From: a virus
Virus record (IMG/VR): IMGVR_UViG_3300045988_159436
Length of the DNA: 64,000 nt
Reading direction: 5' to 3' (one strand)
In this document: positions 12,350 through 63,108 of the stretch, piece after piece
How positions within the stretch are numbered: the first letter of the stretch is position 1
Layout of the letters: every line of letters begins with the position of its first letter
Notes under the pieces: generated by a model
Told to the model about the DNA's origin: nothing
What the model saw: the letters and a program-made list of their open reading frames with translations, nothing else
Database searches by the model: none
Position numbers and translations under genes: made by a program

Positions 12350-12366
12350 GAGACTAAAATTTTTAG

Positions 12367-14333: not shown

Positions 14334-14397
14334 ATTTATAGTGTTCAGATAACAGCTATGACTGTTAAGTTATTACTTAAAATTTAATAAGTAATGC

Positions 14398-14426
14398 TTG
14401 ACAGTCTTTTTATTTTATGTTATAAT
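14398..14426 (+). promoter_or_regulatory. second tandem sigma-A promoter (TTGACA-17-TATAAT)
   Basis: -35 at 14398-403, -10 at 14421-26. Confidence 0.5.
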
Positions 14427-14447
14427 AGTATTGAGGTGGAGGAAATA

Positions 14448-15054: not shown

Positions 15055-15254
15055 AGTTAGTAAAGGCAAAAGATAATTCGGCTCATTTTAGTCGTGGAGA
15101 GTTGTATAAAGTAACCCCATATAAAACTATGTATGGAGAAACAAAATATACTATTTATACTGAGAATGGGTGGTTTATAAAAAGTTTTGTAACAGAAGGG
15201 GAATTACTTTATTTTTTTGATGTAGTTAATAATTATAATTTTGGATGGGAATAA
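15045..15254 (+). CDS. small EWE-terminus family protein (4)
   Basis: Start ATGGGAATAAAG overlaps the previous EWE stop; ends ...NFGWE-TAA. Confidence 0.45.
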   Translation: MGIKLVKAKDNSAHFSRGELYKVTPYKTMYGETKYTIYTENGWFIKSFVTEGELLYFFDVVNNYNFGWE

Positions 15255-20943: not shown

Positions 20944-20992
20944 CATTATTTTCAATATGTAATATTCCTCTGTGAGAAATCGGAGGAAAAAG

Positions 20993-21412
20993 ATGGCTTT
21001 GACAGACAATCCTATGAGTTTAGTGGTTACAGGCAATGTAACAGTTGGGGCAACATTAGAAGCAAGTGTACCGACTACTGAAACAAGATTGTTGAGTACT
21101 ATGGATGTGAATACAACGGTTACTATTACAGTGCCTGCGGGTGTAAAAGTATTAAAAGTATCAGGTGCTGTAGACCATGAACACGAAGGTGAAGTAGCTT
21201 TAGATGTATATTCAGTAAATAGCAAAAAATATTGGTTATCTGTATATAATTACGGATATGCTAGTGATATTTGGTATGTAGGAGTTACACCCAATAAAAG
21301 TTATACATTAAAGTTATCAACTGATAGCGAAACTGGCACTGAATCTGGAAGTGTAACTATTAGTTATTCACAATCAATTAACAATCAAACGCCTAAAGTA
21401 ACCGATTACTAA
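20993..21412 (+). CDS. ALTDNPM-box protein paralogue
   Basis: RBS cggaggaaaaagATG; MALTDNPMSLVVTGNVTVGATLEAS; ends KVTDY. Confidence 0.45.
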   Translation: MALTDNPMSLVVTGNVTVGATLEASVPTTETRLLSTMDVNTTVTITVPAGVKVLKVSGAVDHEHEGEVALDVYSVNSKKYWLSVYNYGYASDIWYVGVTPNKSYTLKLSTDSETGTESGSVTISYSQSINNQTPKVTDY

Positions 21413-21433
21413 ACTCAAAATCTGCCGTATATT

Positions 21434-21847
21434 ATGGCTTTAACTGATAATCCAATGTCAATTATCGTGACAGGCAATGTCACCATAGGAGCTAGCTTAG
21501 AGGCTAGTATTCCTAGTGGGGAAGTTACTTTAGCACATGGCAGTACCTTTACAGTTCCCGCAGGAATAACAGTATTAAGAGCTTCATTTAATCAATCTGG
21601 ATATTTAAGTTTGATTACGTATGTAGGTGTAACACCCAATAAATCCTATAAATTGTATTCTAATTGGACTGAATATAATTATGGAGAAGGTGAAGAATAC
21701 TTGTTGTATAATGCTAACAATAATAAATCTTGGATTGATTATACTATAGGCAATTTAGATGTTGATACTGGTTACACTGAGCTGAATTTTAAACTCGAAT
21801 GGTCGCCTACTATCAATTCACACGCAGTAGAAGTTACAGACTATTAA
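21434..21847 (+). CDS. ALTDNPM-box protein with a 27-aa constant N-terminus followed by a switchable C-terminal cassette
   Basis: MALTDNPMSIIVTGNVTIGASLEASIP, then the C-terminal part; ends VEVTDY. The 36-bp inverted repeat lies within codons 16-27. Confidence 0.45.
   Translation: MALTDNPMSIIVTGNVTIGASLEASIPSGEVTLAHGSTFTVPAGITVLRASFNQSGYLSLITYVGVTPNKSYKLYSNWTEYNYGEGEEYLLYNANNNKSWIDYTIGNLDVDTGYTELNFKLEWSPTINSHAVEVTDY
21480..21515 (+). repeat. 36-bp perfect inverted repeat, left copy (candidate inversion crossover site)
   Basis: tcaccataggagctagcttagaggctagtattccta; the exact reverse complement is at 22149-22184. Confidence 0.85.
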
Positions 21848-25046: not shown

Positions 25047-25067
25047 AGATTTAACGAGGTGATAGTA

Positions 25068-25322
25068 ATGGAAATGTTGGCATTGAAAAGTGGCGTAGAT
25101 TATCGAACGTTTAGGTTTATATTTGGAACTGACAAACTTTCTTATAAAGCTTCTCATAATCTTTGGAAAAAGCTTTCTACTGGTGTATCAAAAAAGCATT
25201 TAAACTTAGAATCAGTTGAAGGTGTACTAATTTATAATTTTGAATACTCTAATGGAAAGTATTGTTATTTTCCTGAGTTTTGGTTTGAAGAAGTTAGGTA
25301 TTCTGATATTGAATGGGAGTAA
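25068..25322 (+). CDS. small EWE-terminus family protein (5)
   Basis: RBS gaggtgatagtaATG; ends ...SDIEWE-TAA. Confidence 0.45.
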   Translation: MEMLALKSGVDYRTFRFIFGTDKLSYKASHNLWKKLSTGVSKKHLNLESVEGVLIYNFEYSNGKYCYFPEFWFEEVRYSDIEWE

Positions 25323-25325
25323 AAA

Positions 25326-25568
25326 ATGGTAAAATTAAAGGAAGGATTAAGGCATGCTGAGTGGCTTTGGTTTATGCACAATTCAATACAGTTTAGAAAT
25401 GCTTGTTATGTAGATGCTAATATATTATGGAATATGTTAAAAGATGGGGTTTCAGAAGATGCCTTAAAAATCAGAGATGATAGTACAGGTTATAAAGAAA
25501 TCTGTTATAAAGAAGTTAAATATGCCTTACCTATAAAGTGGTGTTTGCCAATTTTTGAATGGGAATAA
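25326..25568 (+). CDS. small EWE-terminus family protein (6)
   Basis: Ends ...PIFEWE-TAA, immediately followed by a promoter. Confidence 0.45.
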   Translation: MVKLKEGLRHAEWLWFMHNSIQFRNACYVDANILWNMLKDGVSEDALKIRDDSTGYKEICYKEVKYALPIKWCLPIFEWE

Positions 25569-43494: not shown

Positions 43495-43878
43495 ATGAAC
43501 CAAGAACTCACATTAGCAGTTAGCAGTAGTTTTGAAGCCGCTCATCATTTAGTAAATCCAACAGCATTTAATGAAAAATGCCTTAAACTACATGGACATT
43601 CTTATAAGTATACTATCTTTTTAAAAGGAGAAGTACAAGATGGTGGTATGGTAGAAGATTTTGGAGCTATAAAGAGATATATTATAAATGAAATAACAAA
43701 GCTCTATGACCATTCAGATTTAAACAGATTTTTTTATAATCCTACCGCAGAAATGTTAGTTTTAGATATGGCATGGAGAGTAGAAGCCTTAATAGAGGAT
43801 AATAGTTTAAAAGTTAAACTGACCAAAATAGAATTAGCCGAAACGGATAATAATAGGGTAATATGGGAGTCACAGTAA
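43495..43878 (+). CDS. queD: 6-carboxy-5,6,7,8-tetrahydropterin synthase QueD
   Basis: CLKLHGHSY (CxxxHGH) plus the N-terminal EAAHHL motif. Confidence 0.7.
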   Translation: MNQELTLAVSSSFEAAHHLVNPTAFNEKCLKLHGHSYKYTIFLKGEVQDGGMVEDFGAIKRYIINEITKLYDHSDLNRFFYNPTAEMLVLDMAWRVEALIEDNSLKVKLTKIELAETDNNRVIWESQ

Positions 43879-44535
43879 ATGTATATTACAGAGATTTTTA
43901 GTAGTATTCAAGGTGAGGGGAAGTATACAGGCTATCCTACTACCTTTGTTAGATTATTTGGTTGCAATTTATTTGAGATGTCTCCTAGCTATGCTTGTAA
44001 GTATTGTGATGAGAAACATTCAATGACAGGCAAACGAATAAAGATGCATTTAGGATTGGTAATGGATAAGATAGGGGCATTAGGAAATAAATATGTTTGT
44101 ATTACAGGTGGAGAACCTTTAATGCAGGAAGAAACTATGCCTTTAGTTTATGAATTATTGTATAATGATTATATTGTTACAGTAGAAACAAATGGGACAA
44201 TTCCTATAGAGCATTGTGAATATGTAAGAAGTTATTCATATTGTATGGATGTTAAATTACCTAGTAGCAGAACAGTATTAGCACCAGATTTAAATTGTTA
44301 TAAGAATTTAGGAGAGCTAAAAGTAAATGATGAAGTTAAGTTTGTTATTTCTAATATCCATGATTATGAAGAAGCAAAACGGATTTTAAAGAAATATAAA
44401 ACTAAAGCAAGCCTTATTTTTTCTCCTGTGAATTGTGATTTAGAATTAGCAAGAGAAATAATGGGTTGGTTAATGAAAGATAAACTAAAAGCTAAATTAG
44501 GATTACAAATACATAAATTATTAGAAATTAAATAG
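43879..44535 (+). CDS. queE: 7-carboxy-7-deazaguanine synthase QueE (radical SAM)
   Basis: EIFSSIQGEGKYTGYPTTFVRLFGCN...C..CD N-terminal signature. Confidence 0.7.
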   Translation: MYITEIFSSIQGEGKYTGYPTTFVRLFGCNLFEMSPSYACKYCDEKHSMTGKRIKMHLGLVMDKIGALGNKYVCITGGEPLMQEETMPLVYELLYNDYIVTVETNGTIPIEHCEYVRSYSYCMDVKLPSSRTVLAPDLNCYKNLGELKVNDEVKFVISNIHDYEEAKRILKKYKTKASLIFSPVNCDLELAREIMGWLMKDKLKAKLGLQIHKLLEIK

Positions 44536-44585: not shown

Positions 44586-46446
44586 ATGAAGATAGAAAAT
44601 GTTAGAATATATGGTTTGCCAGAGAGCTTAATAGCCTCTGGCTATCCTATGTTATCTACAGAATTAAATGAAGAGGAATTTTTAAAGGAAGTAGAAGCGA
44701 CAGAAAAAATAATTAAAAATAAATCTGGTAGTAATAAACATATAGAAAGAGGTATTAGATTAGGCAATTCTCCTTTAGGTAGCGGACATAATTGTGCTTT
44801 AAAGGGAATTACAGTACAATTTGATTTAACTTTGCCTCAGTATACATGGCAACAGTTACAAAGATATCACTATATTGATTTTATAAGCTCAATGGGCGTT
44901 TTAGGCAGTAATGCCTAAAATTATCAGACGGAGAACCTGTAAATGCAGGGTGTCAGAAATGGCTAACGGTTCAGAACTAGAGATAGTTTATGAGTAAGGG
45001 AAGCTAAACCTTTCGAGGCAAGCTAATACCGTGCTGTATAAATTTGAAAAGGAAATTATTATGGAAAAAATTGAAGATATGATTATTTTAGAGTATTTAC
45101 CACTTCAAAAAGTAAGAGTGAGATGCTCTATTTGTGGAAAAGAAAGAATAGTATCTTTAAGAAATTTAAGGAGAAAAGGCAATAGACATACTATAAATAC
45201 TTGTAAAGAATCTTTTGTTAATTTACTAATAGGAAAAGAGCTAGGCGATTATGTTGTTTCTGGTTCTGCTCCTAAAAATAAAATAGAATTAAGCTGTAAG
45301 ATATGTGGGCATAAAACGTCTTGTTATGAAAGTGGGCTAACCCCAAGATTCCATAATGGTAGCACTTGTAAAGAAGATTTTGCTAAAAGTTTTCTAGGAA
45401 AATCTACAGATGCTTTTAAGATAGTTGATTATTTTAAAAAGGGACAACAGTATCAATTAGTGTTAGAATGTTTATCCTGTGCAACACGAAGGAATATACC
45501 TATTAATAAAATAGATACATATTCTTTTTCTCATAAAGATTGTTTTTATTTTCTTCCTAATGATAACATAAAGAAAACTATAAGTTATCGTTGGGAGGGG
45601 ATAAATCAACGTGTTTTTAATCCTAACAATAATAACTATACGTATTATGGAGCAAGAGGTGTGCAGAATAAATTCAAAGATAAAGTTGATTTCTATTATC
45701 ATTTTTATCCCGAATTATCTAAAAATTCTTCTCTAACTATAGATAGAATAGATGTTAATGGGGATTATAGCAAAGAAAATACAAGACTAATTACAATAAA
45801 AGAACAGCAGTCTAATAAAAGAGAAACTCATTATTTTATAGCACAAGCTGGTGATAAATGCTATGTTTCTAATAACACTATGGAATTTGGAAAAAGATTT
45901 GGCATAAATGGTAGAAGCATAGGAAATTGTTTGAGAGGACAATCTAAAACTGCTGGTGGCTTTAAATTCAAAGAAATTACAAAAGAGCAATTTGAGAATT
46001 TATGTAGTGTAACGACTAAAGGGATAATTGTTATCCAAGAGGTTGTAGGTGAAATTCCTACGCTGTAGCACCGTCCCCCTGAAAAGGGTGAAGAGATAGT
46101 CTATTCCCTTCAAATACGCCGAAAGGCGGGGTATAAAGCAATGTCAAAAATGCATCGTATTACAATGCTTGATTTAGATAAACATTGTCCTTTAGTGGAT
46201 AATGAATTATTAAAAATTTCACAAAGATATGTAAATGCTTATAAAAAAGGTGAGATTGGCATAGATGCTTGTTTATCTAATATTCCTATGGGATTACAGA
46301 TGACAGCACGAATGACTACAAACTATTTACAACTATTATCTATTTATCATCAGAGAAATACCCATCGTTCAGATGAATGGAAAGAATTTTGTTCTTGGGT
46401 AAAAACACTGCCTATGTTTAAAGAGTTGTGTTTAAAAGGAGAATAA
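44586..46446 (+). CDS. ThyX-like (flavin-dependent thymidylate synthase family) gene split by a group I intron
   Basis: Exon 1 (44586 to about 44915) and exon 2 (about 46136-46446) together show the ThyX-like pattern ...LPQYTWQQLQR... / ...HRI...NELLKISQRY... / ...RNTHRSDEWKEF (compare APIFVARQWFRHR, ELSGRY, RADSHAQWEI). Exact splice junction not determined. Confidence 0.4.
44916..46135 (+). mobile_element. group I intron carrying a homing-endonuclease ORF
   Basis: 5' part ggttcagaactagag (R-like) and 3' part agagatagtctattc (S-like) flank the ORF; sits between two halves of one gene. Confidence 0.55.
45031..46068 (+). CDS. intron-encoded homing endonuclease (zinc-finger + HNH_3-like domain)
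   Basis: N-terminal CSICGKE/CKICGH zinc knuckles; C-terminal IDRIDVNGDYSKENTRLITIKEQQSN resembles the HNH_3 motif. Start may be Met11 (45061). Confidence 0.5.
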   Translation: MLYKFEKEIIMEKIEDMIILEYLPLQKVRVRCSICGKERIVSLRNLRRKGNRHTINTCKESFVNLLIGKELGDYVVSGSAPKNKIELSCKICGHKTSCYESGLTPRFHNGSTCKEDFAKSFLGKSTDAFKIVDYFKKGQQYQLVLECLSCATRRNIPINKIDTYSFSHKDCFYFLPNDNIKKTISYRWEGINQRVFNPNNNNYTYYGARGVQNKFKDKVDFYYHFYPELSKNSSLTIDRIDVNGDYSKENTRLITIKEQQSNKRETHYFIAQAGDKCYVSNNTMEFGKRFGINGRSIGNCLRGQSKTAGGFKFKEITKEQFENLCSVTTKGIIVIQEVVGEIPTL

Positions 46447-49049: not shown

Positions 49050-49313
49050 ATGCAGAAATTTAAATTGAGAAGTAACGACCTAGATACTTTATATAGTATC
49101 TTTAAACATAGTTCATTAACTCCCTTAGATATAAAGCAGTTAAGACAAAATAAATTTTTCTATACTTATACGCCACGAAGAGCAATGGAAAGAAATGAAA
49201 GAGTTTTTGTTAGAGTGGCAGATACTTTTGACTGTCCAATATTGTTTAATATGGCAGGTAGAAACTTTCTATATTTTTTTAAGGAAGTTAATGATAGGGA
49301 TGAGTGGGAATGA
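49050..49313 (+). CDS. small EWE-terminus family protein (7)
   Basis: Ends ...DRDEWE-TGA; RBS aaggaagattaaaATG. Confidence 0.45.
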   Translation: MQKFKLRSNDLDTLYSIFKHSSLTPLDIKQLRQNKFFYTYTPRRAMERNERVFVRVADTFDCPILFNMAGRNFLYFFKEVNDRDEWE

Positions 49314-49369: not shown

Positions 49370-49858
49370 ATGAAAATTATAGCAGTAGATTTTGATGGAA
49401 CATTATGTGAAAATAAGTATCCAGAAATAGGTGAGCCTGTTACTGGGTATTATCGAGGGTGGAAAGGTGATAAATATTTTTCTTGTCGTTTTAATTTTAT
49501 TAAGCTTTTAATAGCTTTGCAAGAAATGGGAAATAAAATAATTCTTTTTACTTGCAGAGGTGGTGAACAATTAGAAGAAGCTGTAAGTTGGTGCAATAAC
49601 CTATTTGGATTAAAATTTGATGCAGTTAATAATGATGTAGAAGAAACTTTACAAAGGTATGCTCCGACTCTTGAATTAAGAAATCAATTATCTGCTACAA
49701 GAAAGATTTATGCAGATGTTTATATAGATGACAGAAATTTAAATGCAGATGAATATTTAGAGAAGAATTTAATTTTATTAGATGCAAAATCTTTATATGA
49801 TATGGGGATAACAGAAAATGCTACAGAATTTTTAATTGAAAGGGTGTTGAATAAATGA
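49370..49858 (+). CDS. HAD-superfamily phosphatase / nucleotidase-like
   Basis: Motif I VDFDGTLC at the N-terminus. Confidence 0.5.
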   Translation: MKIIAVDFDGTLCENKYPEIGEPVTGYYRGWKGDKYFSCRFNFIKLLIALQEMGNKIILFTCRGGEQLEEAVSWCNNLFGLKFDAVNNDVEETLQRYAPTLELRNQLSATRKIYADVYIDDRNLNADEYLEKNLILLDAKSLYDMGITENATEFLIERVLNK

Positions 49859-50217
49859 GAAAAATAGTTGTGGCTGGTACAAGAGAATTTAATGATTATA
49901 GATTATTATGTGATGTTTTAGATTTTCATATAAATGGTGAACAAGTAATTATAATTAGTGGTAATGCTAAAGGAGCAGATTCAATGGGAGAGGTTTATGC
50001 TTCTTCTCATAATTTGAAATGTGTAAAATTTCCCCCTGATTATGAAACTTATCCCTCTAAAGTAGCTCCATTAAAAAGGAACGAGGAAATGGCAAAGGAA
50101 GCTACAGAAGGAATTATATTTTGGGATGGTGTTTCAAGAGGTACTTGGAATATGATTCAGCAATTAAGAAAATATAAGAAAAAAGTAACTATTATTAACT
50201 ATAGGAAGTTGGCATAA
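49855..50217 (+). CDS. SLOG / DprA-like Rossmann-fold protein (DUF2493-like)
   Basis: GNAKGADSMGE (GxxxGAD) motif in a ~120-aa protein. Confidence 0.4.
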   Translation: MRKIVVAGTREFNDYRLLCDVLDFHINGEQVIIISGNAKGADSMGEVYASSHNLKCVKFPPDYETYPSKVAPLKRNEEMAKEATEGIIFWDGVSRGTWNMIQQLRKYKKKVTIINYRKLA

Positions 50218-50218: not shown

Positions 50219-50827
50219 ATGGATAATTGCGAATTTTATTTATTATATAGCGGTGGGTATGATAGCACTGTGTTGCTTTATGATTTTATTGATAAATTAC
50301 CTAATAAATTGACGGTAATACATATTGTTACTCAGTATAATCAAGAAGAAACAAAAGCGGCAAGAAAAATAATTGAATTAGTAAAAGATAAAATTCTTAA
50401 CTATATTGAATTAGAAATGCCTGTTTACAAAACAGAAATAGAATACATTCCTTATAGAAATGCTCAATTTATATTAAGAGCACTTTCAACCTTGACAATT
50501 AAAGCAAGATGTGCTATAATATTATTAGGGTTGATAAAGGTAGAGGAACCTTTCCCTGATTGCACACAATATTGGTTAAAAACAATGGAGAAATTAGTTC
50601 AAGTAGAAAATCCTCATATTGGATTAGAGGCACCTTATATCAATAATACTAAAGATGAAATTTATACCGTAGGATGCAAGTTTAAGGTTCCTTTAAGAAA
50701 TACTTTTAGTTGTAACTTTCCTGTAGATGGTGCAGAATGCGGGGAATGTGGAAACTGTAAATGGAAAGCAAAACATAAATATCCTAATTATTTTAGAGTT
50801 ATAGAAGGAGGTAAAAACAATGTTTAA
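50219..50827 (+). CDS. queC: 7-cyano-7-deazaguanine synthase QueC
   Basis: PP-loop YSGGYDST; C-terminal zinc cysteines CNFPVDGAECGECGNCKWK. Confidence 0.7.
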   Translation: MDNCEFYLLYSGGYDSTVLLYDFIDKLPNKLTVIHIVTQYNQEETKAARKIIELVKDKILNYIELEMPVYKTEIEYIPYRNAQFILRALSTLTIKARCAIILLGLIKVEEPFPDCTQYWLKTMEKLVQVENPHIGLEAPYINNTKDEIYTVGCKFKVPLRNTFSCNFPVDGAECGECGNCKWKAKHKYPNYFRVIEGGKNNV

Positions 50828-51035: not shown

Positions 51036-52877
51036 ATGAAAAATGGATATACGTTATTTCTTTCTGGCGTTGAACCAGAAGAAAATTTCTATACTGCAAT
51101 AGACGTTACTTCTAGTCTATTGCAGTCTTATTGGTATATAAAGCGGCGTGGAAAAGATAAAATTGTAGAACGTTTTGATAAAGTTAAGAAGAACTCTTTG
51201 TTAATTGATAGTGGAGCACATACCTTTCTCACTTTAGCAGAATATCAAGATAAGACAGTAGATTATTGGGAAGAGTATATAAAAGGGTATATAGCTTTTG
51301 TAAGAAAACATAGAGAAAAAGTATTTGCTTGTGTTGAAATGGATATAGATACTTTAGTAGGAACAGAACAAGTAAATAAATGGAGAGAAGAATACTTTCA
51401 TTCTTTAGAGGAAGAGGGCATTCCTGTTATTTATGTTTATCATGCAGAAAAAGGATTGGAAGAGTGGGAAAGAATGTGTAAAGCATATCCCTATGTAGGA
51501 TTCTCTTATAATGAATTTGAAGATGCTATTTTAATTGATAAATTATTTGAAATAGCAATGGAATATAAAACTAAAGTACATGGTTTTGCAGTATCGGGGT
51601 ATAGGGAATTATTAAAACATGAGTATTATACAAGTGACAGTACAAGCTGGATTACAGGAGCTCAATATGGAGAATTAAACTATTTTGAAGGTGGAAAATT
51701 AAAGCGGTTAACAAAAGAGAAATGGAAAAATGAATATTATGCAAAAATACTTGATTTATGCACAAGTAAAAAGTTACTAGAAGCAGAGGCTCCTTATGAA
51801 TTAATGCGTATTAGTGCTTTAAGCTATAAGAAATTAGAAGAGCATGTAAATGATATATTTAGAGGTAAAAGATATTGGGTTGGAAGAAAGGAAGTGTCTA
51901 AAGTAGCGAGTAAGGAAAATTTACCGCCAGTAGAATGGTTTTCAACTGATATGGAAGATTGGCAAGAATGGGCACAGAAATTAAATATAGATACTAACCT
52001 TCCTGATGAAGCAGGTAAATCATTAGTTGTTGCCTGTTACAATTTTGTGACAGATAATCCTATTATAAATGAGTATCCTCTTGAAGAGTTAATTGATTTA
52101 TGTGGGCTTTTTGGTGATAAGAAGTCAAATACTCTTACCAAGTGCCGAAAAGCCCTTAAAGAGCACTTTACAGCTCTCTTAAAGGGCAGTATGGATTTAT
52201 CCACTTTGACAGAAGAAGAAGTAGAAGAGAAAAAAAATGTAGCTCCAAAAGAGCGGGAAGAGTATGTTCAAGAAAAAGAGTATGTAGAATGTACTGTTAG
52301 CAAGGAAGAGTGTCAAGGTTTATTAAAAGGATTATTAACTTCTGGTGTGACAGATGAAGCAGAGAAAGCTTTAATTGAACAGGGAATAGAGCCTATTTAT
52401 GATGAGAATGGAAATATTAAAGCAGGTATTAAACGAATAAAGAAAAGAAAATCTTTAAGTTCAAGTGTGATGCCAGAGTTAAGTTGCAATATTTGTACTA
52501 AAGCACGGAGATGTCCTTTATATGAAGAAGGAATGCTTTGTGCTTATAATAAAATGTTTAAGCAATTTGATACAAGAAATCCCGAAGATGTAGTAGATGC
52601 TATGAGCAGTATTGCAAATTTAAGTTTAGAAAGATTATCAAGGGCTGTAACATTTGAAAAGTTAGATGGTGGCTTAAATACTAAAGAAGTAACAGAGACA
52701 ATGGCAGAAGCATGGAAATATCTTGAAAAGATACAAGAAATTCAAACAAAGAGTGATAAAGTTATAGCAGAGCGTAGAGTTGTAACTTCTTCTAATGGCG
52801 ATGTAGAAGTAAGAGAAAGTGTAACAGGAAATCCGCAAGGTTTATTGTCTGAGATTCTAAAAACAAAAAAAAGTTGA
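51036..52877 (+). CDS. tRNA-guanine-transglycosylase-fold protein, candidate DpdA-like 7-deazaguanine DNA transglycosylase, with extra C-terminal domain
   Basis: LLIDSGAHTFL resembles the TGT catalytic DSGGFQ box; co-located with queC/D/E; C-terminal Cys cluster (CNICTKARRCP...C). Tentative. Confidence 0.35.
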   Translation: MKNGYTLFLSGVEPEENFYTAIDVTSSLLQSYWYIKRRGKDKIVERFDKVKKNSLLIDSGAHTFLTLAEYQDKTVDYWEEYIKGYIAFVRKHREKVFACVEMDIDTLVGTEQVNKWREEYFHSLEEEGIPVIYVYHAEKGLEEWERMCKAYPYVGFSYNEFEDAILIDKLFEIAMEYKTKVHGFAVSGYRELLKHEYYTSDSTSWITGAQYGELNYFEGGKLKRLTKEKWKNEYYAKILDLCTSKKLLEAEAPYELMRISALSYKKLEEHVNDIFRGKRYWVGRKEVSKVASKENLPPVEWFSTDMEDWQEWAQKLNIDTNLPDEAGKSLVVACYNFVTDNPIINEYPLEELIDLCGLFGDKKSNTLTKCRKALKEHFTALLKGSMDLSTLTEEEVEEKKNVAPKEREEYVQEKEYVECTVSKEECQGLLKGLLTSGVTDEAEKALIEQGIEPIYDENGNIKAGIKRIKKRKSLSSSVMPELSCNICTKARRCPLYEEGMLCAYNKMFKQFDTRNPEDVVDAMSSIANLSLERLSRAVTFEKLDGGLNTKEVTETMAEAWKYLEKIQEIQTKSDKVIAERRVVTSSNGDVEVRESVTGNPQGLLSEILKTKKS

Positions 52878-52942: not shown

Positions 52943-53260
52943 ATGAAGATAATTAGTTATGGAAAAAGATTTAGATTATTAGAAAAAGGGTATATTGGAG
53001 ACAGGTTGTTTTCTAAAGGGTCAATATTTATGGCTACAGGATTAATTAGTTTTAAGGGTAATAATCTGTTCCGTGTTTATAATCCTGATGGCAGTTTAAA
53101 ACAAAATTTGCATACTGGTAATGGACATGTAAATTTTTCTTTAAGTTTATCTCCTATATCAAAAGATGAGCTTTTAGCATCAGAAGAATGTTATTGGTTT
53201 TTAAATGATAGAGAATTAAGAATTTATTTTAAAGAAATTGTCTATGAGGAATGGGAGTAA
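52943..53260 (+). CDS. small EWE-terminus family protein (8)
   Basis: RBS aagaggtggcaataaATG; ends ...YEEWE-TAA inside GAATGGGAGTAA. Confidence 0.45.
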   Translation: MKIISYGKRFRLLEKGYIGDRLFSKGSIFMATGLISFKGNNLFRVYNPDGSLKQNLHTGNGHVNFSLSLSPISKDELLASEECYWFLNDRELRIYFKEIVYEEWE

Positions 53261-53574
53261 GAGTTATGAAAAAATACAAAGAAACTTTTATAACAAAAAG
53301 TCAGTTTTCTGATGGATTAAGGACTTTTCCTAAAGGAACAATATTTGAAAGCACAGGAGTTTTTTGTGGCAGTGAAACACTTTTTTGTGTTTACTATCCC
53401 GATGGCTCTCCTTATACTTGTTTACATGATGGCAATAGTGCTCAAATAATGCTTTTTAATAGTACACCTATAACATTAGCTGAAATTCGAGCACAAGGTG
53501 ATTGTCATTGGTGGGTTAAAGATTCTGATATTAATGAATATTTTATACCAAAATCATCTTTAGAATGGGAGTGA
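53251..53574 (+). CDS. small EWE-terminus family protein (9; paralogue of 8)
   Basis: Start ATGGGAGTAAGAG overlaps the previous stop; ends ...SLEWE-TGA. Shares KG(S/T)IF..TG...........F.VY.PDGS with the previous protein. Confidence 0.45.
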   Translation: MGVRVMKKYKETFITKSQFSDGLRTFPKGTIFESTGVFCGSETLFCVYYPDGSPYTCLHDGNSAQIMLFNSTPITLAEIRAQGDCHWWVKDSDINEYFIPKSSLEWE

Positions 53575-53843
53575 AAAAATTGAGCATAACACTAGGAGAG
53601 TATTTTATAGTTACTAGTCCTTTCAAACATGATGGTAATGTATTTCACAGAGGTGATTTATTGCGGGTAATTAAAATATATGATAGTTGGTCTAAAGTTT
53701 TAGTTTCCAACAAATCTTGGATAACAACTAAAGCAGGGCATACAGACACAGAAAATCAATATAGTTTTGGTAGGGGAACAAATTGGAATATTGATATAGA
53801 GTATTTATTTGAAAATTGTGTTTGCAGGTCAGAATGGGAGTAG
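53565..53843 (+). CDS. small EWE-terminus family protein (10)
   Basis: Start ATGGGAGTGAAA overlaps the previous stop; ends ...RSEWE-TAG. Confidence 0.45.
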   Translation: MGVKKLSITLGEYFIVTSPFKHDGNVFHRGDLLRVIKIYDSWSKVLVSNKSWITTKAGHTDTENQYSFGRGTNWNIDIEYLFENCVCRSEWE

Positions 53844-54205
53844 TGGAGATAAGATATAAAGCAGGAGATGTAGTAAAAATTGACAAAACAAGATTTGTTA
53901 TAGAAAGAGTTACTAAAAAAGGCTATATTTTATTTCCTCATATAGGATTTTTCGTAAAGGATTGCCAAATAAATAAAAAAATTAAAGTGAAGAAATCTTA
54001 TGAATTAGGAGATAAATTTAAATGTCTATGTGACTTTAGTTCAGGGACTTCTGTGGCGAAAAAAGACAAACATTATATTTGTACACAGAAATTTTCAGAT
54101 GGCACATATATGCTTACAAGAATAAAAAATAAAGAAGAGAAATTAAGAGTGAATACAAATCAGATTCATGCTTATTTTAGACATTATTTTGGAGGTTGGG
54201 AATAG
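53834..54205 (+). CDS. small EWE-terminus family protein (11)
   Basis: Start ATGGGAGTAGTG overlaps the previous stop; ends ...FGGWE-TAG. Confidence 0.45.
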   Translation: MGVVEIRYKAGDVVKIDKTRFVIERVTKKGYILFPHIGFFVKDCQINKKIKVKKSYELGDKFKCLCDFSSGTSVAKKDKHYICTQKFSDGTYMLTRIKNKEEKLRVNTNQIHAYFRHYFGGWE

Positions 54206-54408
54206 TGCCAATAGGAACAAGAGTAAGAATAAGAGAAGATTTAAAAACTACAGAAACTTATGGTGGTGTAAGAGTTATAGAAGATATGCTAGTTTATGCA
54301 GGTAAAGAAACAACAATAATTTGGCATGAAGCTAATGTATATCATATACTTTTAGATGATGGTTTTTACTATTGGACAGATGGAATGTTTATTAGTGAAT
54401 GGGAATAA
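54204..54408 (+). CDS. small EWE-terminus family protein (12; YYWTDGMF paralogue)
   Basis: GTG start 8 nt after ggagg (alternative TTG at 54196); ends ...GMFISEWE-TAA. Confidence 0.45.
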
Positions 54409-54415
54409 AAAAGTC

Positions 54416-54444
54416 TTGACAAAATAAAATAGTTGTGGTATAAT
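54416..54444 (+). promoter_or_regulatory. sigma-A promoter (TTGACA-17-TGgTATAAT); 37-nt identical copy at 55270
   Basis: -35 at 54416-21, -10 at 54439-44. Confidence 0.6.
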
Positions 54445-54477
54445 AAGTGCATAAGATATTGAAAGAGAGGTTATAAC

Positions 54478-55269
54478 ATGTGTATTATAATTTATAAACC
54501 AGCAAAAGCTACACTAAAAAAAGAAACATTAAAAACAGCATTTGAAAACAATCCTGATGGTGCAGGATTTATGTACCAATCTGATTTACTTGAAGCTCCT
54601 AAAATGCAAAAGGGATTTTTTGATTTTGATAAATTTTATGAGGCATATGAGAAAGTGGCTGAAAGTGATAAAGGTTATAATATTGCTGTTCATTTTAGAA
54701 TTGCAACGCATGGAGCTGTTAATAGTTTAAACTGTCATCCTTTTATTGTTAAAGAAAGTGTTGAAAAAACTATTAGCGAAAAAGGACAGTATAGTTCTTT
54801 ATTTATGCAAAATGGTGTTATTAAAAGTATTTCTGTAAATAAGAAAGATAAATATAGTGATACTTGTAATTTCACCTATAAAATTATGTCTAAAATTAAA
54901 ACATTAACAAGCATGAAGATAAAAGATATTCTGGAAACTATTGAATCTCCAAGTAGATTTTGTTTAATGCAAGAAGGGCGAAAACCTTTATTGATTGGTA
55001 GTTTCAAAAAAGATGGTGGAGTAAGTTTTAGTAATGAATCCTATAAAGAAATAAAAACTGCTATTTCTTATCCTACTACTTTTGAAACTTATTTACTTGC
55101 ATTCGAAGATTGCGATGCAAAAGATATTAGAGATATTGAAACAGAACTTAAAGATGACCAATGTGGAATTATTGATGCTTATAATGTAGGAGATGTAACT
55201 TTCTTTGAAACGAACTATCTCCCTATTAGAGAAAAGATTGCAGGTAAAGAATTTCGATGTTATCGTTGA
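54478..55269 (+). CDS. class-II (Ntn) glutamine amidotransferase-like protein, YafJ-type
   Basis: N-terminal Met-Cys (MCIIIY), NPDGAGFMY, VHFRIATHG, NCHPF; parallels the YafJ motifs MCELLG, HKDGWGIAF, AHIRQANRG, NTHPF. Confidence 0.6.
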   Translation: MCIIIYKPAKATLKKETLKTAFENNPDGAGFMYQSDLLEAPKMQKGFFDFDKFYEAYEKVAESDKGYNIAVHFRIATHGAVNSLNCHPFIVKESVEKTISEKGQYSSLFMQNGVIKSISVNKKDKYSDTCNFTYKIMSKIKTLTSMKIKDILETIESPSRFCLMQEGRKPLLIGSFKKDGGVSFSNESYKEIKTAISYPTTFETYLLAFEDCDAKDIRDIETELKDDQCGIIDAYNVGDVTFFETNYLPIREKIAGKEFRCYR

Positions 55270-55275
55270 AAAGTC

Positions 55276-55304
55276 TTGACAAAATAAAATAGTTGTGGTA
55301 TAAT
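55276..55304 (+). promoter_or_regulatory. sigma-A promoter (duplicate of the 54416 promoter)
   Basis: aaaagtcttgacaaaataaaatagttgtggtataata is identical to 54410-54446. Confidence 0.6.
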
Positions 55305-55336
55305 ATAAATACACTAAAAATAAAGGAGATAATAGT

Positions 55337-55729
55337 ATGAATTTTCGCATTAACGATGTAGTAACATTAAAACAAGGATTGACAGGTGAAAAAGAAAAGT
55401 ATAGCGGCAAGACTTTAATGATTCGAGCTATTTCCGAAGGGCATTACATTATGAAAGTACCTAATAAAACTGCACCAAAAGATAATCGTGAACTTATGGA
55501 TGTAAGTTTTAATGATGCTGATATTCAATTAAATCCTTTAGAAGTAAAGGTAGAAACTGAATCTGATGGAATTATTGATATTATGGCTAAAAATTCAAAA
55601 GATGAATGGATTGCAATTTTACGGTTACAGGATGGAGAATTATTGCGTAAAAAAGATTTAGCAAAACAAGGTTTTTCTGGCTTGAAGTTAGACTTTAAAG
55701 GAAGACTTCGGTTAGTAACCAGTTATTAA
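55337..55729 (+). CDS. hypothetical protein
   Basis: RBS aaggagataatagtATG. Confidence 0.4.
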   Translation: MNFRINDVVTLKQGLTGEKEKYSGKTLMIRAISEGHYIMKVPNKTAPKDNRELMDVSFNDADIQLNPLEVKVETESDGIIDIMAKNSKDEWIAILRLQDGELLRKKDLAKQGFSGLKLDFKGRLRLVTSY

Positions 55730-56037
55730 TGTTACCTGAATATATAAGTGCTGAAAATGGAATAAAGTATGTGCCTTTTACTGGCAATATTTTATTCCTT
55801 AAAAGTATATTATATGAACACAATAATTTTCCAATAAGATTACTTTTAGAAGAAGAACAATTATCCGCTTTTATCATTGTTTATGTAACAGCAAAGAACT
55901 TAATTTGTGTGGATACAAGTTCAGAAGGTAAATTGTTTGAAAGTATTTTAAAAATACCTGTTAGCACTTTAAAAGAGCGTGTGTTTGAGGGAATAAATTA
56001 TGAAATTTACATTAAACAAACTGCTTTAGGAGAGTAG
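55729..56037 (+). CDS. hypothetical protein
   Basis: TAATG overlap with the previous gene. Confidence 0.35.
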   Translation: MLPEYISAENGIKYVPFTGNILFLKSILYEHNNFPIRLLLEEEQLSAFIIVYVTAKNLICVDTSSEGKLFESILKIPVSTLKERVFEGINYEIYIKQTALGE

Positions 56038-56040
56038 CCA

Positions 56041-56376
56041 ATGAAAAGATATCACATAGCAGTAAAATTTGATAAAGAAAAGATAGCAAATATAGATTTC
56101 TGTAAATTACATTTAATATTTACTAAACATTTTAAACAAAGAGCATGTTTAAAAAGGATTCCTAAGCCTTATAAAGCTCTGTTAAAAAGGGGTAAGATTT
56201 TTGAGTATCATACAGATGATAATGAAAATTTGCTTAAATTTGTCATACGTTGTAAATACAACGAAAATTGTGATGTTTGTTATGTGTTAACTCCTACTGG
56301 CAGGGTTATTACTGGTTGGTGGCAAGATACAAATGATAGTCATTCAACATTAAAAATAAATTTATATGAAAGGTGA
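56041..56376 (+). CDS. hypothetical protein
   Basis: ORF follows the previous stop by 3 nt. Confidence 0.35.
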   Translation: MKRYHIAVKFDKEKIANIDFCKLHLIFTKHFKQRACLKRIPKPYKALLKRGKIFEYHTDDNENLLKFVIRCKYNENCDVCYVLTPTGRVITGWWQDTNDSHSTLKINLYER

Positions 56377-56383
56377 TAAGAAT

Positions 56384-56917
56384 ATGAATAAGAAAACTGA
56401 TGAAATCAAAAAAAGTGGAGATGAAGATTTTCAAGCATTTGTAGACCTTTGTTCTGCTATTATGCTTGGTGAGGATAAGAGAGCAGAATCAGTAATGAGA
56501 AAAGCAGTAAAGAAAGCGACTAAAGAACTTGATAATATTGATATCCCTAAAGGTTATACTATTGATACTGAACGTTGGAAGCAATTTCCTCAATTAGAAT
56601 CAGGAATGCTGGTTTTTGTTTCAAATGGTTGCTGGGGCAAAATTTCTGAAGATTACGAAACTGGTCGTCTTTATTTTTATCGTAAAGGAGGAGCAATTTC
56701 TTTAGGTGAATTGCAAAAACAAACTGGAAAAGGTTTAGAAGAATTATTTATAGAAGTATACGTTCCTAAGAATCAGTTTGCAATTCATTCATACAATCCT
56801 GAGAATTTTAATTTGCATTATACTTGTTTGAAAAAGAAACCTGAAAAAGTGCGTATTTCTTTAGCAGAATTGTTGAAAAGAGCGGGGTTAGAAGGAAAGG
56901 AAGTTGAAATTCATTAA
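56384..56917 (+). CDS. hypothetical protein
   Basis: RBS aaaggtgataagaatATG. Confidence 0.4.
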   Translation: MNKKTDEIKKSGDEDFQAFVDLCSAIMLGEDKRAESVMRKAVKKATKELDNIDIPKGYTIDTERWKQFPQLESGMLVFVSNGCWGKISEDYETGRLYFYRKGGAISLGELQKQTGKGLEELFIEVYVPKNQFAIHSYNPENFNLHYTCLKKKPEKVRISLAELLKRAGLEGKEVEIH

Positions 56918-57141
56918 TGTTTGGATGTGCGGCTTGTTTAACGATTTTTTTATTCACTATTAACTTATTAGGCTATGTCTCTTTAAGTTATTGGATTATT
57001 TTCGCACCAGTTATTTTTGCCTTTGGCATTACAGCTCTTTTTGGACTATTTGCAGTAGGTATTATAGCGACAATGGATTATATTGTTACATCAGAAAGGT
57101 TTAAGGAATGGAAGGACTTACACAAACAAGAAAAGAATTAA
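56917..57141 (+). CDS. small membrane protein (2 TM)
   Basis: TAATG overlap with the previous gene; hydrophobic helices. Confidence 0.35.
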   Translation: MFGCAACLTIFLFTINLLGYVSLSYWIIFAPVIFAFGITALFGLFAVGIIATMDYIVTSERFKEWKDLHKQEKN

Positions 57142-57320
57142 TAGAATCTGCTATTAAGCTTCTTTTAGATTGCGATGATTATGAAGGTTTAAATTTTAAA
57201 GAATATGATACGACACAAGAAATAGTAGAAATTCCAAGTAAAGAATTTGAGCTTTTACACAAACTTTCCCGAATTGGAAGTTTGTTTGTACTTTCTATTT
57301 TAGAGAGTGAGCAAAAATAG
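57108..57320 (+). CDS. hypothetical protein
   Basis: ORF overlapping the previous gene end. Confidence 0.3.
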   Translation: MEGLTQTRKELIESAIKLLLDCDDYEGLNFKEYDTTQEIVEIPSKEFELLHKLSRIGSLFVLSILESEQK

Positions 57321-57321
57321 T

Positions 57322-57350
57322 TTGACAAAATCCCTTACATGTGATATAAT
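57322..57350 (+). promoter_or_regulatory. sigma-A promoter (TTGACA-17-TGaTATAAT)
   Basis: -35 at 57322-27, -10 at 57345-50. Confidence 0.6.
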
Positions 57351-57369
57351 GCATATGTAAGGGATTTTT
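57331..57369 (+). terminator. terminator hairpin enclosing the promoter -10 (tcccttacat...atgtaaggga + tttttac)
   Basis: 10-bp perfect stem whose loop contains gtgatataatgc, followed by a T-run. Confidence 0.55.
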
Positions 57370-57386
57370 ACTAAGGGGGCTTACAA

Positions 57387-57605
57387 ATGATGCCAATAGG
57401 AGCAGAAGTAAAAATAAGAAAAGATTTAAAATTAGGTGTACTTTATAAAAACAGAAATAATAAACGTGCTATGCATGCTTGTAGAGGCATGTTATTATTG
57501 GCAGGTAAAAAAGCGTTTATAACAAATAATGTTAATAATATTTACTCTATAGATAATAGTTTTTATTATTGGACAGATGGAATGTTTGAAACTGAATGGG
57601 AATAA
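57387..57605 (+). CDS. small EWE-terminus family protein (13; YYWTDGMF paralogue)
   Basis: RBS aagggggcttacaaATG; ends ...GMFETEWE-TAA. Confidence 0.45.
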   Translation: MMPIGAEVKIRKDLKLGVLYKNRNNKRAMHACRGMLLLAGKKAFITNNVNNIYSIDNSFYYWTDGMFETEWE

Positions 57606-57612
57606 AAAAGTC

Positions 57613-57641
57613 TTGACAAATTTAAAAGAAAATGATATAAT
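57613..57641 (+). promoter_or_regulatory. sigma-A promoter (TTGACA-17-TGaTATAAT)
   Basis: -35 at 57613-18, -10 at 57636-41. Confidence 0.6.
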
Positions 57642-57671
57642 ACATTTATCAAATCAAAAGGAGATGTAAAA

Positions 57672-58844
57672 ATGTTAAATTGCAAAATTTGTGGTAATGA
57701 AATTAGTGGAACTTATACAATTTATCAAAAAGACGGAGTAGAATATCCAGCACATATTGAATGCGTTGAAGAAAATAAGCAACATTGTGATGAGTGCAAT
57801 AAATTTTTTGATAGAGAAGATTTAAAAACTACAACATTAGGAAACCATTATTGCCCAGATTGTTTGTCTGAAAAAACTGTAGTTTGTGGAAAATGTGGTA
57901 AACACGTAGAAAATGCACCATTGAAAAGAGTAAATAGTGTATCTTATTGTCAAGAATGTTTTGAACAGAAATGGGTATATTGTGCAAAATGTGGTAAAAG
58001 GGTTTTAAGAAGTAGAGCAAAAAATTTAAATAATACACATTATTGCGCTTCATGTGCTAGTTCTGTTGTTAAGGTAGAAAATTATAGTTACAAACCTACC
58101 CCTATATTTTGTGGTGTAGATAGTTCTCGTTATTTTGGTATTGAAGTCGAAACTGAGGGCAGAGAAAATAATCTTTATGCGGAAGAAATTATTGGAGATT
58201 CAAAAATTTTCTATGCAAAACATGATGGCAGTTTAAATGACGGAATTGAATTTGTAAGTCATCCTTGCACTCTTAACTATTGGAGAGAGGAATCCAAGCT
58301 TGATGAATTTTGCAAAAGGGCGATTGGTTTAGGGTTTAATTCTCATAAAACTACTTCTTGTGGATTGCATGTTCATATTACTAAATCTACAGTAGAAAGG
58401 GAAGCTTTTGAAAAAGTGCTTCTGTTTTTGAGTAATAACTGGGATGATGTGGTGAAATTTACCCGCCGCAAAAGTTCCAGCATTAATAGATGGGCGGCTA
58501 ATAATTTAGGGGATGCGCCAATGATTAAAACTTGTACTCTTGCACAAAAAATGAAATTAGTAAAAGAGTATTCTTCTGGCAGTCGTTATGTAGCAGTAAA
58601 TGAAACATCTAAAACATATGAATTTCGTATTTTTAGGGGAACTTTAAAACCTGAAACTATTTTAGCTTGTATTGAGTTTTGCGATGCTCTTATCAATTTA
58701 TGTGCTAGTTTGCCTTTTGCAAACATTGAAACAGCTAATTTTAATACTTTAATGGAATTTGCAAAACCTAAAGGATGCTATAAAGAGCTTGTAGAATATT
58801 GGGAAACTCGAACAATGAAGAAAAAGGATGTTGTTCTTGGATAA
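57672..58844 (+). CDS. multi-zinc-ribbon protein fused to a putative amidoligase (GS-like COOH-NH2 ligase, Amidoligase_2-type)
   Basis: N-terminal six CxxC pairs; C-terminal GIEVETEG (E.E), DGIEFVSHP, CGLHVHI (HxH), YEFRIFRG (Arg), as in glutamine-synthetase-like amidoligases. Confidence 0.45.
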   Translation: MLNCKICGNEISGTYTIYQKDGVEYPAHIECVEENKQHCDECNKFFDREDLKTTTLGNHYCPDCLSEKTVVCGKCGKHVENAPLKRVNSVSYCQECFEQKWVYCAKCGKRVLRSRAKNLNNTHYCASCASSVVKVENYSYKPTPIFCGVDSSRYFGIEVETEGRENNLYAEEIIGDSKIFYAKHDGSLNDGIEFVSHPCTLNYWREESKLDEFCKRAIGLGFNSHKTTSCGLHVHITKSTVEREAFEKVLLFLSNNWDDVVKFTRRKSSSINRWAANNLGDAPMIKTCTLAQKMKLVKEYSSGSRYVAVNETSKTYEFRIFRGTLKPETILACIEFCDALINLCASLPFANIETANFNTLMEFAKPKGCYKELVEYWETRTMKKKDVVLG

Positions 58845-58880
58845 AAAACTTTTATAATTAAAGAAAGCAGAGTGATATAA

Positions 58881-59489
58881 ATGTGTATTGTAATTTACCA
58901 ACCTAAAGGAAAGCAAGTGCAAAAAGCAATTTTACAGAAAGCATTTGAAAACAATCCTGATGGTGCAGGATTTATGGTTCAAAAAGATAAAGAAGCACCA
59001 TATATGATGAAGGGATTTTTTGATTTTGATAAATTTTATAAATCATATCTTCCATTTTCTAAAGGGGATTATAACGTAGCAATTCATTTTAGAATTGCTA
59101 CACATGGAACAGTAAACAAAGATAACTGTCATCCATTTAAAATTTCTTCTGATATTGCTGATACTGTTTTATTTAATGGCAGGGCAGATTCGCTGATAAT
59201 GCATAATGGCATTATTAGTAGCATTATGACACCAAGAAATCTGCCATATAGTGATACAATGAATTTTATTGCAAAGATTTTATGTTGGATGAAAGACCTT
59301 AAATCTAAAGATTTGACAGAAGTATTAGAAAACCTCGAAAGTTATTCAAAGTTTTGTATAATGAGAAAAGGATTTGACCCCATTCTAGCGGGGCTTTTTA
59401 TTGAAGATAGAGGTATTTTTTATAGCAATTCAACTTATAAATATAGTTATGTTAATACTTTTCAAAATTGTAAAACTTATTTAAATTAA
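58881..59489 (+). CDS. class-II (Ntn) glutamine amidotransferase-like protein, YafJ-type (paralogue of 54478)
   Basis: MCIVIY, NPDGAGFMV, IHFRIATHG, NCHPF. Confidence 0.6.
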   Translation: MCIVIYQPKGKQVQKAILQKAFENNPDGAGFMVQKDKEAPYMMKGFFDFDKFYKSYLPFSKGDYNVAIHFRIATHGTVNKDNCHPFKISSDIADTVLFNGRADSLIMHNGIISSIMTPRNLPYSDTMNFIAKILCWMKDLKSKDLTEVLENLESYSKFCIMRKGFDPILAGLFIEDRGIFYSNSTYKYSYVNTFQNCKTYLN

Positions 59490-62643: not shown

Positions 62644-63108
62644 ATGATAATATTAAAGAAAACAGAAAGAATAACAAAAGTTCCTATAATGCTTTCTCCA
62701 TCACAACAAAGAAAAAATGATATATTAGTTGATTTATTACATCGTGTATACTCTTCAATAATACAAAGCGTATCATTACAGCGGTTAAAGAAATCTGAAT
62801 TAGGAATAATAATGATGTCTTTAACATGGAGAGCGGCAGGGATAAGATATGTACAACTATCAACAAATTATGGAGCTTCTTTAGTAAAGAGAGAGCAAGC
62901 ATATAAAAGTATGTATAAAGTAGAAATAAATAGAGAATTAACGAGAGATTTATTTTATAGTTTCGTAGATTTTTTTATTTATGACTTATCTTCAAGTGAT
63001 TATAATAGAGTATTTAATAATTTTCTTTTTACAGGCGATTGGTTTGAAGATTTACATACTTATTTAGATTGTTATATTCGTTATATGAATTTAAAGGAAT
63101 GGGAGTAA
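62644..63108 (+). CDS. EWE-terminus family protein (14)
   Basis: Ends ...NLKEWE-TAA inside GAATGGGAGTAA, which supplies the next ATG. Confidence 0.45.
   Translation: MIILKKTERITKVPIMLSPSQQRKNDILVDLLHRVYSSIIQSVSLQRLKKSELGIIMMSLTWRAAGIRYVQLSTNYGASLVKREQAYKSMYKVEINRELTRDLFYSFVDFFIYDLSSSDYNRVFNNFLFTGDWFEDLHTYLDCYIRYMNLKEWE

Follow-up and report, generated by a model that had tools for sequence, protein, structure and literature searches.

A widespread amidoligase–Ntn amidohydrolase gene pair of phages and small integrative elements, with gamma-glutamyl amide chemistry as its tentative function

The viral DNA analysed here, IMG/VR record IMGVR_UViG_3300045988_159436, is a stretch of 64,000 nucleotides that we call the window. 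Between positions 54,478 and 59,489 it encodes two paralogous amidohydrolases of the N-terminal nucleophile (Ntn) type, g1 and g2, together with a carboxylate-amine ligase of the Amidoligase_2 family. The ligase gene stands directly before g2, and this arrangement—ligase, then Ntn—is an autonomous and widespread two-gene module, found in phages of very different hosts and in small integrative elements of gut bacteria. What the two enzymes do together is a harder matter. Our preferred reading, to which we assign a probability of roughly 0.42, is that they would form an early-expressed pair that makes and breaks gamma-glutamyl amides on a target supplied by the host.

All three open reading frames (ORFs) lie on the + strand where the original prediction for this DNA had placed them: g1 (263 residues, matching phrog_25883) at 54478–55269, the ligase (390 residues) at 57672–58844 and g2 (202 residues) at 58881–59489. 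In a 209-position alignment the two Ntn proteins show 49% identity (E=6e-69). Both begin Met-Cys, as had been pointed out, and both carry the motifs then singled out: NPDGAGF at residue 25, HFRIATHG at residue 72 in g1 and 69 in g2, and NCHPF at residue 85 in g1 and 82 in g2. The smaller of the two, g2, consists of the Ntn core only; g1 carries a C-terminal extension of about 60 residues and has QNG in place of the HNG of the family. These are stand-alone proteins with the fold of class-II glutamine amidotransferases (GATases), and on profile and model evidence together the assignment is secure. The profile of the g1/g2 family matches the glutaminase domain of GlmS (E=1e-7) and is more distant from two stand-alone entries, 3mdn and 1te5. 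The AlphaFold (AF2) model of g2, with a predicted local distance difference test score (pLDDT) of 92.1, adopts the four-layer alpha-beta-beta-alpha Ntn fold and matches the glutaminase domains of GlmS, GFAT, EgtC and PurF with a Foldseek probability of 1.00. Alignment A1, of 54 homologues, shows little or no variation at Cys2, Arg71, Asn109-Gly110 and Asp125, Cys2 being conserved in at least 90%; these residues correspond to Cys1, Arg73, Asn98-Gly99 and Asp123 of GlmS, the last three being aligned with it at HTRWATHG and HNG. Finally, some members of the family exceed the cut-off for GATase_4 (PF13230), scoring up to 33.4 bits. The more particular label 'YafJ-type' suits the family in this sense, but not the two window proteins individually: against a gathering threshold of 23 bits, g2 scores 16.2 and g1 gives no match at all.

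An exhaustive profile search returned 7,060 cluster representatives of this Ntn family at E<=1e-30. In 147 of the top 150 the match begins at residue 1–4, as a nucleophile at Cys-1 requires. None of these 150 is an Ntn–ligase fusion, none being long enough, and the C-terminal extensions of the longer family members contain no Pfam domain.

The ligase matches PF12224 with 37.4 bits (E=3.4e-9; gathering score 22) and also phrog_2443 and phrog_7469, each annotated 'amidoligase enzyme', so the original amidoligase call was sound, and the motifs behind it are where they were said to be (GIEVETEG at residue 156, GLHVHI at 231, FRIFRG at 318). The protein is built of a tandem LIM-like zinc module (residues 1–130) and a catalytic domain (residues ~135–390). 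The zinc module had been described as six CxxC knuckles. The module is real, but the count is different: seven CxxC pairs, at residues 4, 39, 61, 72, 93, 104 and 125, and one HxxC, H28-x2-C31, make up four zinc ribbons. Its likeness to LIM domains comes from a Foldseek match to LIM4-5 of PINCH and a profile match to PINCH1 LIM4-5 at E=3.5e-5. In 41 homologues the twelve zinc cysteines are invariant, and so are E158, E160, H233, H235, R319 and R322. No solved Amidoligase_2 structure was found by sequence; the catalytic domain of the AF2 model (pLDDT 88.6) has Foldseek matches to YbdK/GCS2, GmaS (gamma-glutamylmethylamide synthetase), glutamine synthetase (GS), PafA and Dop. The activity predicted from family and model is ATP-dependent formation of an amide bond.

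The pair recurs far beyond this phage. A pattern scan found 416 IMG/VR contigs that encode a relative of g2, and 73 of the loci were fetched. Ten belong to the same phage or its close relatives, one to a sister lineage (g2 65% identical) and one is a g1 copy of the same phage; the other 61 are distant. In the gene-neighbourhood survey of these, which the original prediction had proposed, ligase and Ntn recur together in 60 of the 61: an amidoligase homologue lies directly 5' of the Ntn gene, on the same strand, and the sole exception is an Ntn gene at the edge of its contig. Across the distant loci, then, the pairing is obligate. Variations on the theme occur. One locus (L076) has the ligase–Ntn pair twice in tandem, and in three others (L028, L044 and L046) a single Ntn gene comes after two ligase genes. 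The same two genes in the same order are found in mycobacteriophage Marvin (gp105/gp106), in the Methylophilales (OM43) phages MEP401 (gp05/06) and MEP402, and in the uncultured podovirus MW202733; both window proteins have direct homologues, by sequence, in Marvin and MEP401. The pair has also been reported in viruses of Poseidoniales, archaea without peptidoglycan (PMC11706807).

The closest bacterial relatives of the LIM-type ligase, at least 1,319 proteins, occur in gut Bacteroidales and Clostridia, in small integrative elements with a characteristic gene order: helix-turn-helix (HTH) regulator, ligase, class-II GATase, D5_N/DUF5906 primase-helicase, excisionase-like HTH protein and integrase. 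Here, too, the ligase and Ntn genes abut or overlap. The Ntn protein of the elements belongs to a different class-II subfamily, scoring only 27–31 bits against the g1/g2 profile, from which it follows that the partnership survives exchange of one Ntn subfamily for another.

That these two families keep company in phages had been noted computationally, with no substrate named, and the original prediction was correct in saying so. The pairing of PF12224 amidoligases with class-II GATases was described by Iyer, Abhiman, Burroughs and Aravind in 2009, according to the papers that quote them, and it is now routinely annotated in phiEco32-like, LUZ24-like (LUZ24, PaP3 and the tf group), Marvin-like and OM43 phages, usually together with a hypothesis of cell-wall modification or superinfection exclusion. 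A paper of 2023 considers the function of the pair still to be explored (PMC10580990), and our search of the literature for experiments on it yielded only genome annotations and one observation from directed evolution. Nor did any protein model of PADLOC-DB 2.0 match g1, g2, the two ligases or the homologues from bacteria. The window pair agrees with the module of Iyer et al. in families, order, strand and early-region location. The cassette of phiEco32 and LUZ24 has, in addition, an extra COOH-NH2 ligase, an ATP-grasp protein and a GGCT protein, which were not found beside the window pair. What we describe is thus a further case of a known pair, and a modest addition to it, peculiar in its minimal form, its tandem-LIM ligase, its duplicated Ntn gene and the second LIM-ligase present in sister contigs.

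This second ligase (L010:18071–19525) is another zinc-ribbon Amidoligase_2 protein, 484 residues long, which matches PF12224 with 41.9 bits and is 32% identical to the window ligase. In the sister contigs it is encoded some 8–10 kb 3' of g2, which would be past the end of the window, and has no adjoining Ntn gene. The genome accordingly holds two ligases and two Ntn genes, and the second ligase may be the partner of the otherwise unpaired g1.

The ligase and g2 genes are separated by 36 nt and constitute one operon, behind a promoter at 57613–57641 on the + strand. Similar promoters, of sigma-70 type with an extended -10 element (TTGACA-17-TGnTATAAT), stand before g1 (54416–54444, +) and directly after its stop codon (55276–55304, +), with a further extended -10 promoter at 57322–57350; all four match the consensus at 12 of 12 positions. 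Up to and including the -10 box, the copies before and after g1 have one and the same sequence. Flanked by both, g1 is a single-gene transcription unit. From these consensus promoters we would predict early expression of g1 and of the ligase operon alike. Across the window a promoter box, AAAAGTCTTGACAAA, recurs, as a rule with TGnTATAAT after it; it has 19 matches with at most three mismatches, compared with 7.8 expected, and boxes are found at 25569, 27447, 37965, 42771, 44539, 54409, 55269, 57606 and 63803. They look like strong early promoters of the low-GC Gram-positive type, for use by host RNA polymerase.

Immediately 5' of the promoter of each Ntn-containing unit is a small gene of the phrog_7488 type whose product ends in Trp-Glu, one of several such proteins ('EWE proteins') of this phage: copy A at 54196–54408 (+; E=1.2e-11) and copy B at 57387–57605 (+; E=2.8e-8), identical at 33 of 76 aligned residues and, at both ends, 84–88% identical in nucleotides. 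The similarity between the two regions extends to the nucleotide level, with 84–88% identity between 54206–54429 and 57391–57626, and 73% between 54461–54745 and 58863–59139. By this comparison, a cassette of EWE gene, promoter and Ntn gene is duplicated, and in one copy only does a ligase gene lie between promoter and Ntn. The enzymes are embedded among EWE genes, then, because of a local segmental duplication of that cassette.

Several observations point to gamma-glutamyl chemistry. The solved folds nearest to the ligase all act on the gamma-carboxylate of glutamate, be it free glutamate (GS, GmaS, GCS/YbdK) or the C-terminal glutamate of Pup (PafA). The Ntn proteins conserve exactly the set of residues that grips an L-gamma-glutamyl moiety by its free alpha-amino and alpha-carboxylate groups, and they resemble EgtC. 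In phage C75C1 (OQ984151; L085:5001–5897) a compact Cys-Ntn protein, its catalytic residues intact and complete with Met-Cys start, HFRFATVG and NCHPF, is fused to a GGACT/AIG2 gamma-glutamylamine cyclotransferase. The gene for this fusion, annotated only 'gamma-glutamyl cyclotransferase', lies about 850 bp 3' of an Amidoligase_2 gene. Cyclotransferases cleave gamma-glutamyl amides, and they cannot donate ammonia. In Clostridium prophages, amidoligases are likewise paired with a gamma-glutamyl cyclotransferase (PMC11318856). It is these four observations, taken together, that lead us to favour a gamma-glutamyl pair over an amidotransferase, and to view the Ntn protein as a probable hydrolase rather than a source of ammonia.

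In outline, the ligase—ATP-dependent, and akin to GS and to gamma-glutamylcysteine ligase—would join the gamma-carboxylate of glutamate to an amine, as a gamma-glutamyl-type amide. Its tandem-LIM module probably docks it on another macromolecule, for which a protein is the likeliest candidate. The Ntn enzyme, its conserved Arg and Asp gripping the L-gamma-glutamyl group, would cleave the gamma-amide with its N-terminal Cys, and so would remove the group or turn it over, in the manner of EgtA and EgtC or of a writer and its eraser. The target would be something that any host cell supplies, neither EWE proteins nor 7-deazaguanine, to both of which we return below. As to purpose, three observations suggest a role in host takeover, exclusion or anti-defence and not in metabolism: the promoters are of the consensus early type, the pair comes at the beginning of the integrative elements, and when a LUZ24-like phage was evolved experimentally, missense mutations arose in parallel in its amidoligase and its GATase (PMC11450229).

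A precedent is the ergothioneine pathway, in which the same two folds cooperate: EgtA is a GS-like gamma-glutamylcysteine ligase and EgtC a class-II Ntn gamma-glutamyl amidohydrolase. By structure g2 matches EgtC, among others, and the residues that bind the gamma-glutamyl group are conserved, although identity is only 12–14%. In ergothioneine synthesis, however, EgtB and EgtD act between ligation and removal. Neither is present in the window module, and we see no evidence for a thiol-histidine pathway in the phage.

Several points weigh against gamma-glutamyl make-and-break. To form a bond and hydrolyse it again, no other enzyme intervening, looks futile, and two genes would more naturally make a complete unit as a synthase with its ammonia donor. 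The ligase resembles its fold matches only distantly (template-modelling scores of 0.3–0.4, ~10–13% identity), so that 'glutamate gamma-carboxylate' is extrapolated from the superfamily. Only this clade of ligases has the LIM module—those of Marvin and MEP401 have other N termini—so the target may differ between clades. The role of g1, with its QNG for HNG and no adjoining ligase, could have diverged. And the literature searched contains no biochemical data for any member of the family.

The leading rival is a heteromeric glutamine-dependent amidotransferase, in which the Ntn protein passes ammonia from glutamine to the ligase, and the ligase converts a carboxylate of some host substrate, by way of an acyl-phosphate, to the carboxamide. 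Asparagine-synthetase logic of this kind was part of the original prediction and, stripped of the EWE substrate proposed with it, remains a live competitor to our own reading, if a rather unlikely one. The Ntn proteins retain every residue that class-II GATases use for binding glutamine and for catalysis; GlmS, GFAT and PurF, their best matches by profile and fold, are true glutaminase domains; the two genes are strictly adjacent and often overlap, as genes for subunits of one enzyme do; and the unit would be functionally complete. MurT/GatD and AsnB set the example, ATP-dependent ligase and glutaminase together amidating a carboxylate, from adjacent genes. But in MurT/GatD the ligase has a Mur-ligase fold and the GATase is of class I; in AsnB the synthase is of the PP-loop type and shares a polypeptide with its class-II domain; and neither ligase is GS-like. 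Glutamine-dependent amidations of carboxylates use PP-loop, Mur-ligase or other synthases, and to our knowledge no GS-like ligase works with a glutaminase subunit. The canonical class-II amidotransferases GlmS, PurF, AsnB and GltB are fused to their glutaminase domains, whereas the top 150 Ntn representatives include no such fusion with a ligase. The fusion that does exist, and the replacement of the Ntn partner in Clostridium prophages, bring in a cyclotransferase instead, which is incapable of supplying ammonia. Improbable, in our estimation, is the proposal made for the larger, seven-gene cassette of phiEco32, LUZ24 and RIO-1, namely that peptidoglycan stem peptides are modified and superinfection thereby blocked; three papers credit this cell-envelope proposal to Iyer et al. 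2009 and Hardies et al. 2013 (PMC10580990, PMC5498523, PMC11318856), and it is by their account that we give it. The gamma-linked D-Glu of peptidoglycan suits the chemistry well, and a role in exclusion would suit temperate and integrative elements. The window, however, holds the minimal pair only: Pfam and PHROG scans of the ORFs at 55.3–60.7 kb, the rest of the window not being exhaustively scanned, disclosed no ATP-grasp, COOH-NH2_lig or GGCT protein. The hosts, moreover, differ greatly in their envelopes (Mycobacterium, Proteobacteria, Bacteroidota, Clostridia), and the Poseidoniales, reported as viral hosts, have no peptidoglycan whatever (PMC11706807). By eye, neither protein sequence has an evident signal peptide or membrane segment, and the LIM-type module suggests a protein partner instead.

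Gamma-glutamyl make-and-break has no need of the EWE proteins, which the original prediction put forward as the substrates. Its count of them was accurate: 14 ORFs of the window end in Trp-Glu, and they lie within 14394–15254, 25059–25568, 49050–49313, 52943–54408, 57387–57605 and 62644–63108. The idea was that the ligase, with the Ntn protein, amidates the C-terminal Glu of these proteins or ligates something to it, as PafA does on Pup, and in the way of RimK and tubulin-tyrosine ligase. It has its attractions. Such endings are strongly enriched here, at 14 of 194 ORFs compared with a background of 12 of 4,128 in the distant loci; an EWE gene is directly 5' of both Ntn-containing units; and PafA is among the fold matches of a ligase whose LIM module itself suggests a protein partner. 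We nevertheless regard modification of EWE C termini as highly improbable. The pair is present in hundreds of phages and elements that lack Trp-Glu-terminated ORFs, and bacterial elements with the same LIM-ligase architecture have 0–1 of them per locus. When 22 neighbours from the window, EWE genes included, were compared with all loci by tblastn, matches were confined to sister phages. No conserved small ORF or C-terminal motif accompanies the pair, either; the ORF 3' of the Ntn gene, checked in every locus, has no common length or C terminus. The adjacency seen in the window is accounted for by the segmental duplication. The module as such is independent of EWE proteins.

The EWE proteins themselves belong to unrelated families or to none, and their shared ending may not be purely a feature of the proteins. 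In tandem arrays, the sequence TGGGAR-stop overlaps the ATG of the next gene in several cases, or acts as its GGGAG ribosome-binding site, and in three cases a consensus promoter follows directly after such an ORF. A junction or translation-coupling motif would be an alternative. One might still imagine that this lineage has co-opted the module for something like pupylation, since the expansion of Trp-Glu tails, the duplication of ligase and Ntn, and the interleaving of the two are all confined to it: the two LIM-amidoligases would conjugate the Trp-Glu proteins, some 14 tags, through the gamma-carboxylate of their C-terminal Glu to lysines of host or phage proteins, or else cap them, and the Ntn paralogues would deconjugate or process the products. 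We rate this as a long shot. PafA and Dop do offer parallels, in that they have a GS-like fold, act on the C-terminal Glu gamma-carboxylate of a small tag, work as ligase and reverse enzyme, and are remote Foldseek matches of the window ligase. But Dop is a paralogue of PafA rather than an Ntn protein, PafA belongs to another Pfam family than Amidoligase_2, and no tag protein co-varies with the window-type pair across genomes.

The other substrate that had been proposed is a modified base. The window encodes QueD and QueE (43495–44535), a divergent stand-alone QueC of 202 residues (50219–50827, +; PF06508, 79.7 bits, as originally identified) and a DpdA-like DNA transglycosylase (51036–52877, +), and with this complement the DNA of the phage very probably carries dPreQ0 or dADG, the latter containing 7-amido-7-deazaguanine (ADG). 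It had been suggested that g1 and g2 substitute for the Gat domain of Gat-QueC and so yield ADG, but the suggestion fails on the product alone. Gat-QueC in place of QueC makes dG+, that is, archaeosine, from preQ0 (Hutinet et al. 2019, PMC6884629), and ADG has been assigned to a QueC variant, with Gat-QueC using a class-II Gat domain (Hutinet et al. 2023, PMC10516641). Corrected for this, the idea becomes that g1, g2 or both act as a detached Gat for QueC, or that the ligase acts on 7-carboxy-7-deazaguanine (CDG), the resulting base being dG+, dADG or a new amide. To be sure, phage 9g Gat-QueC includes a class-II GATase fold like that of g1 and g2; the Que and DpdA-like genes of the window are in the same genome arm; g1 has no adjoining ligase; and the carboxylate of CDG could in principle be amidated by the ligase. 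Yet of all the readings considered this is the one we believe least. The 9g protein is a fusion and g1 and g2 are separate, with no specific similarity to its Gat domain: BLASTP of g1 and g2 against it was not significant, and the family-profile comparison by hhalign gave a probability of 0.8%. The window QueC, which has no Gat domain, aligns to the QueC half only. In none of the 61 distant loci was QueC, DpdA, QueD or QueE found within 10 kb on either side of the Ntn gene, and 30 phage records with the Ntn protein and 55 with a DpdA relative share not one accession. Within the window, 3.6 kb lie between g1 and QueC, g1 forms a unit of its own with promoters on both sides, and its unpaired state is explicable by the second ligase elsewhere in the genome. 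The notion that either Ntn or ligase is connected to the 7-deazaguanine pathway is not supported by anything we found.

Some further features of the deazaguanine region merit recording. The DpdA-like protein is 613 residues long, of which roughly the first 280 are the transglycosylase part; the remaining ~330 have no Pfam domain and are weakly similar to small terminase subunits (phrog_6902; TerS of Tsukamurella phage TIN2). Its best relative from an isolate is in Bacillus phage BCD7, 33% identical over 98% of the query. Directly 5' of QueC are two overlapping ORFs, one for a HAD-like phosphatase-type protein (49370–49858; phrog_1238/24386) and one for a SLOG/YspA (YAcAr) protein (49855–50217), both of which may belong to the deazaguanine locus. 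Just 3' of QueD and QueE, a phrog_6721 gene is split into an N-terminal half (44586–44918) and a C-terminal half (46141–46446), with an HNH endonuclease ORF (45031–46068) between the two; an intron or a homing-endonuclease insertion is the probable cause.

The window as a whole represents one arm of a low-GC (~31%) phage genome, coding almost wholly on the + strand. A nucleotide search with its 50–60 kb portion against isolated phages gave zero matches, indicating no close cultured relative. At 10480–13722 is a putative diversity-generating retroelement, composed of an Mtd-like receptor-binding protein (10480–12294; PF21916 mtd_2nd, 71.8 bits) followed by a reverse transcriptase (12706–13722; RVT_1, 63.6 bits). 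In the structural region, at 20452–21847, there are three tandem paralogous ORFs of ~140–160 codons whose products share the N-terminal pattern (M)ALTDNPM...VTGNVT.

With 416 viral contigs, 7,060 family representatives and hosts in four bacterial phyla, the amidoligase–Ntn pair is among the most widespread experimentally uncharacterised gene pairs of phages and mobile elements. It is self-sufficient, it stands under consensus early promoters, and it is independent of DNA-modification genes and of co-encoded peptides alike. For the window, this removes as unsupported the links to 7-deazaguanine modification of DNA and to the EWE proteins. The context of the pair consistently indicates gamma-glutamyl amide chemistry instead, possibly on a protein partner recognized by the LIM module, and what was a puzzle of annotation is reduced to a short list of direct enzyme assays.

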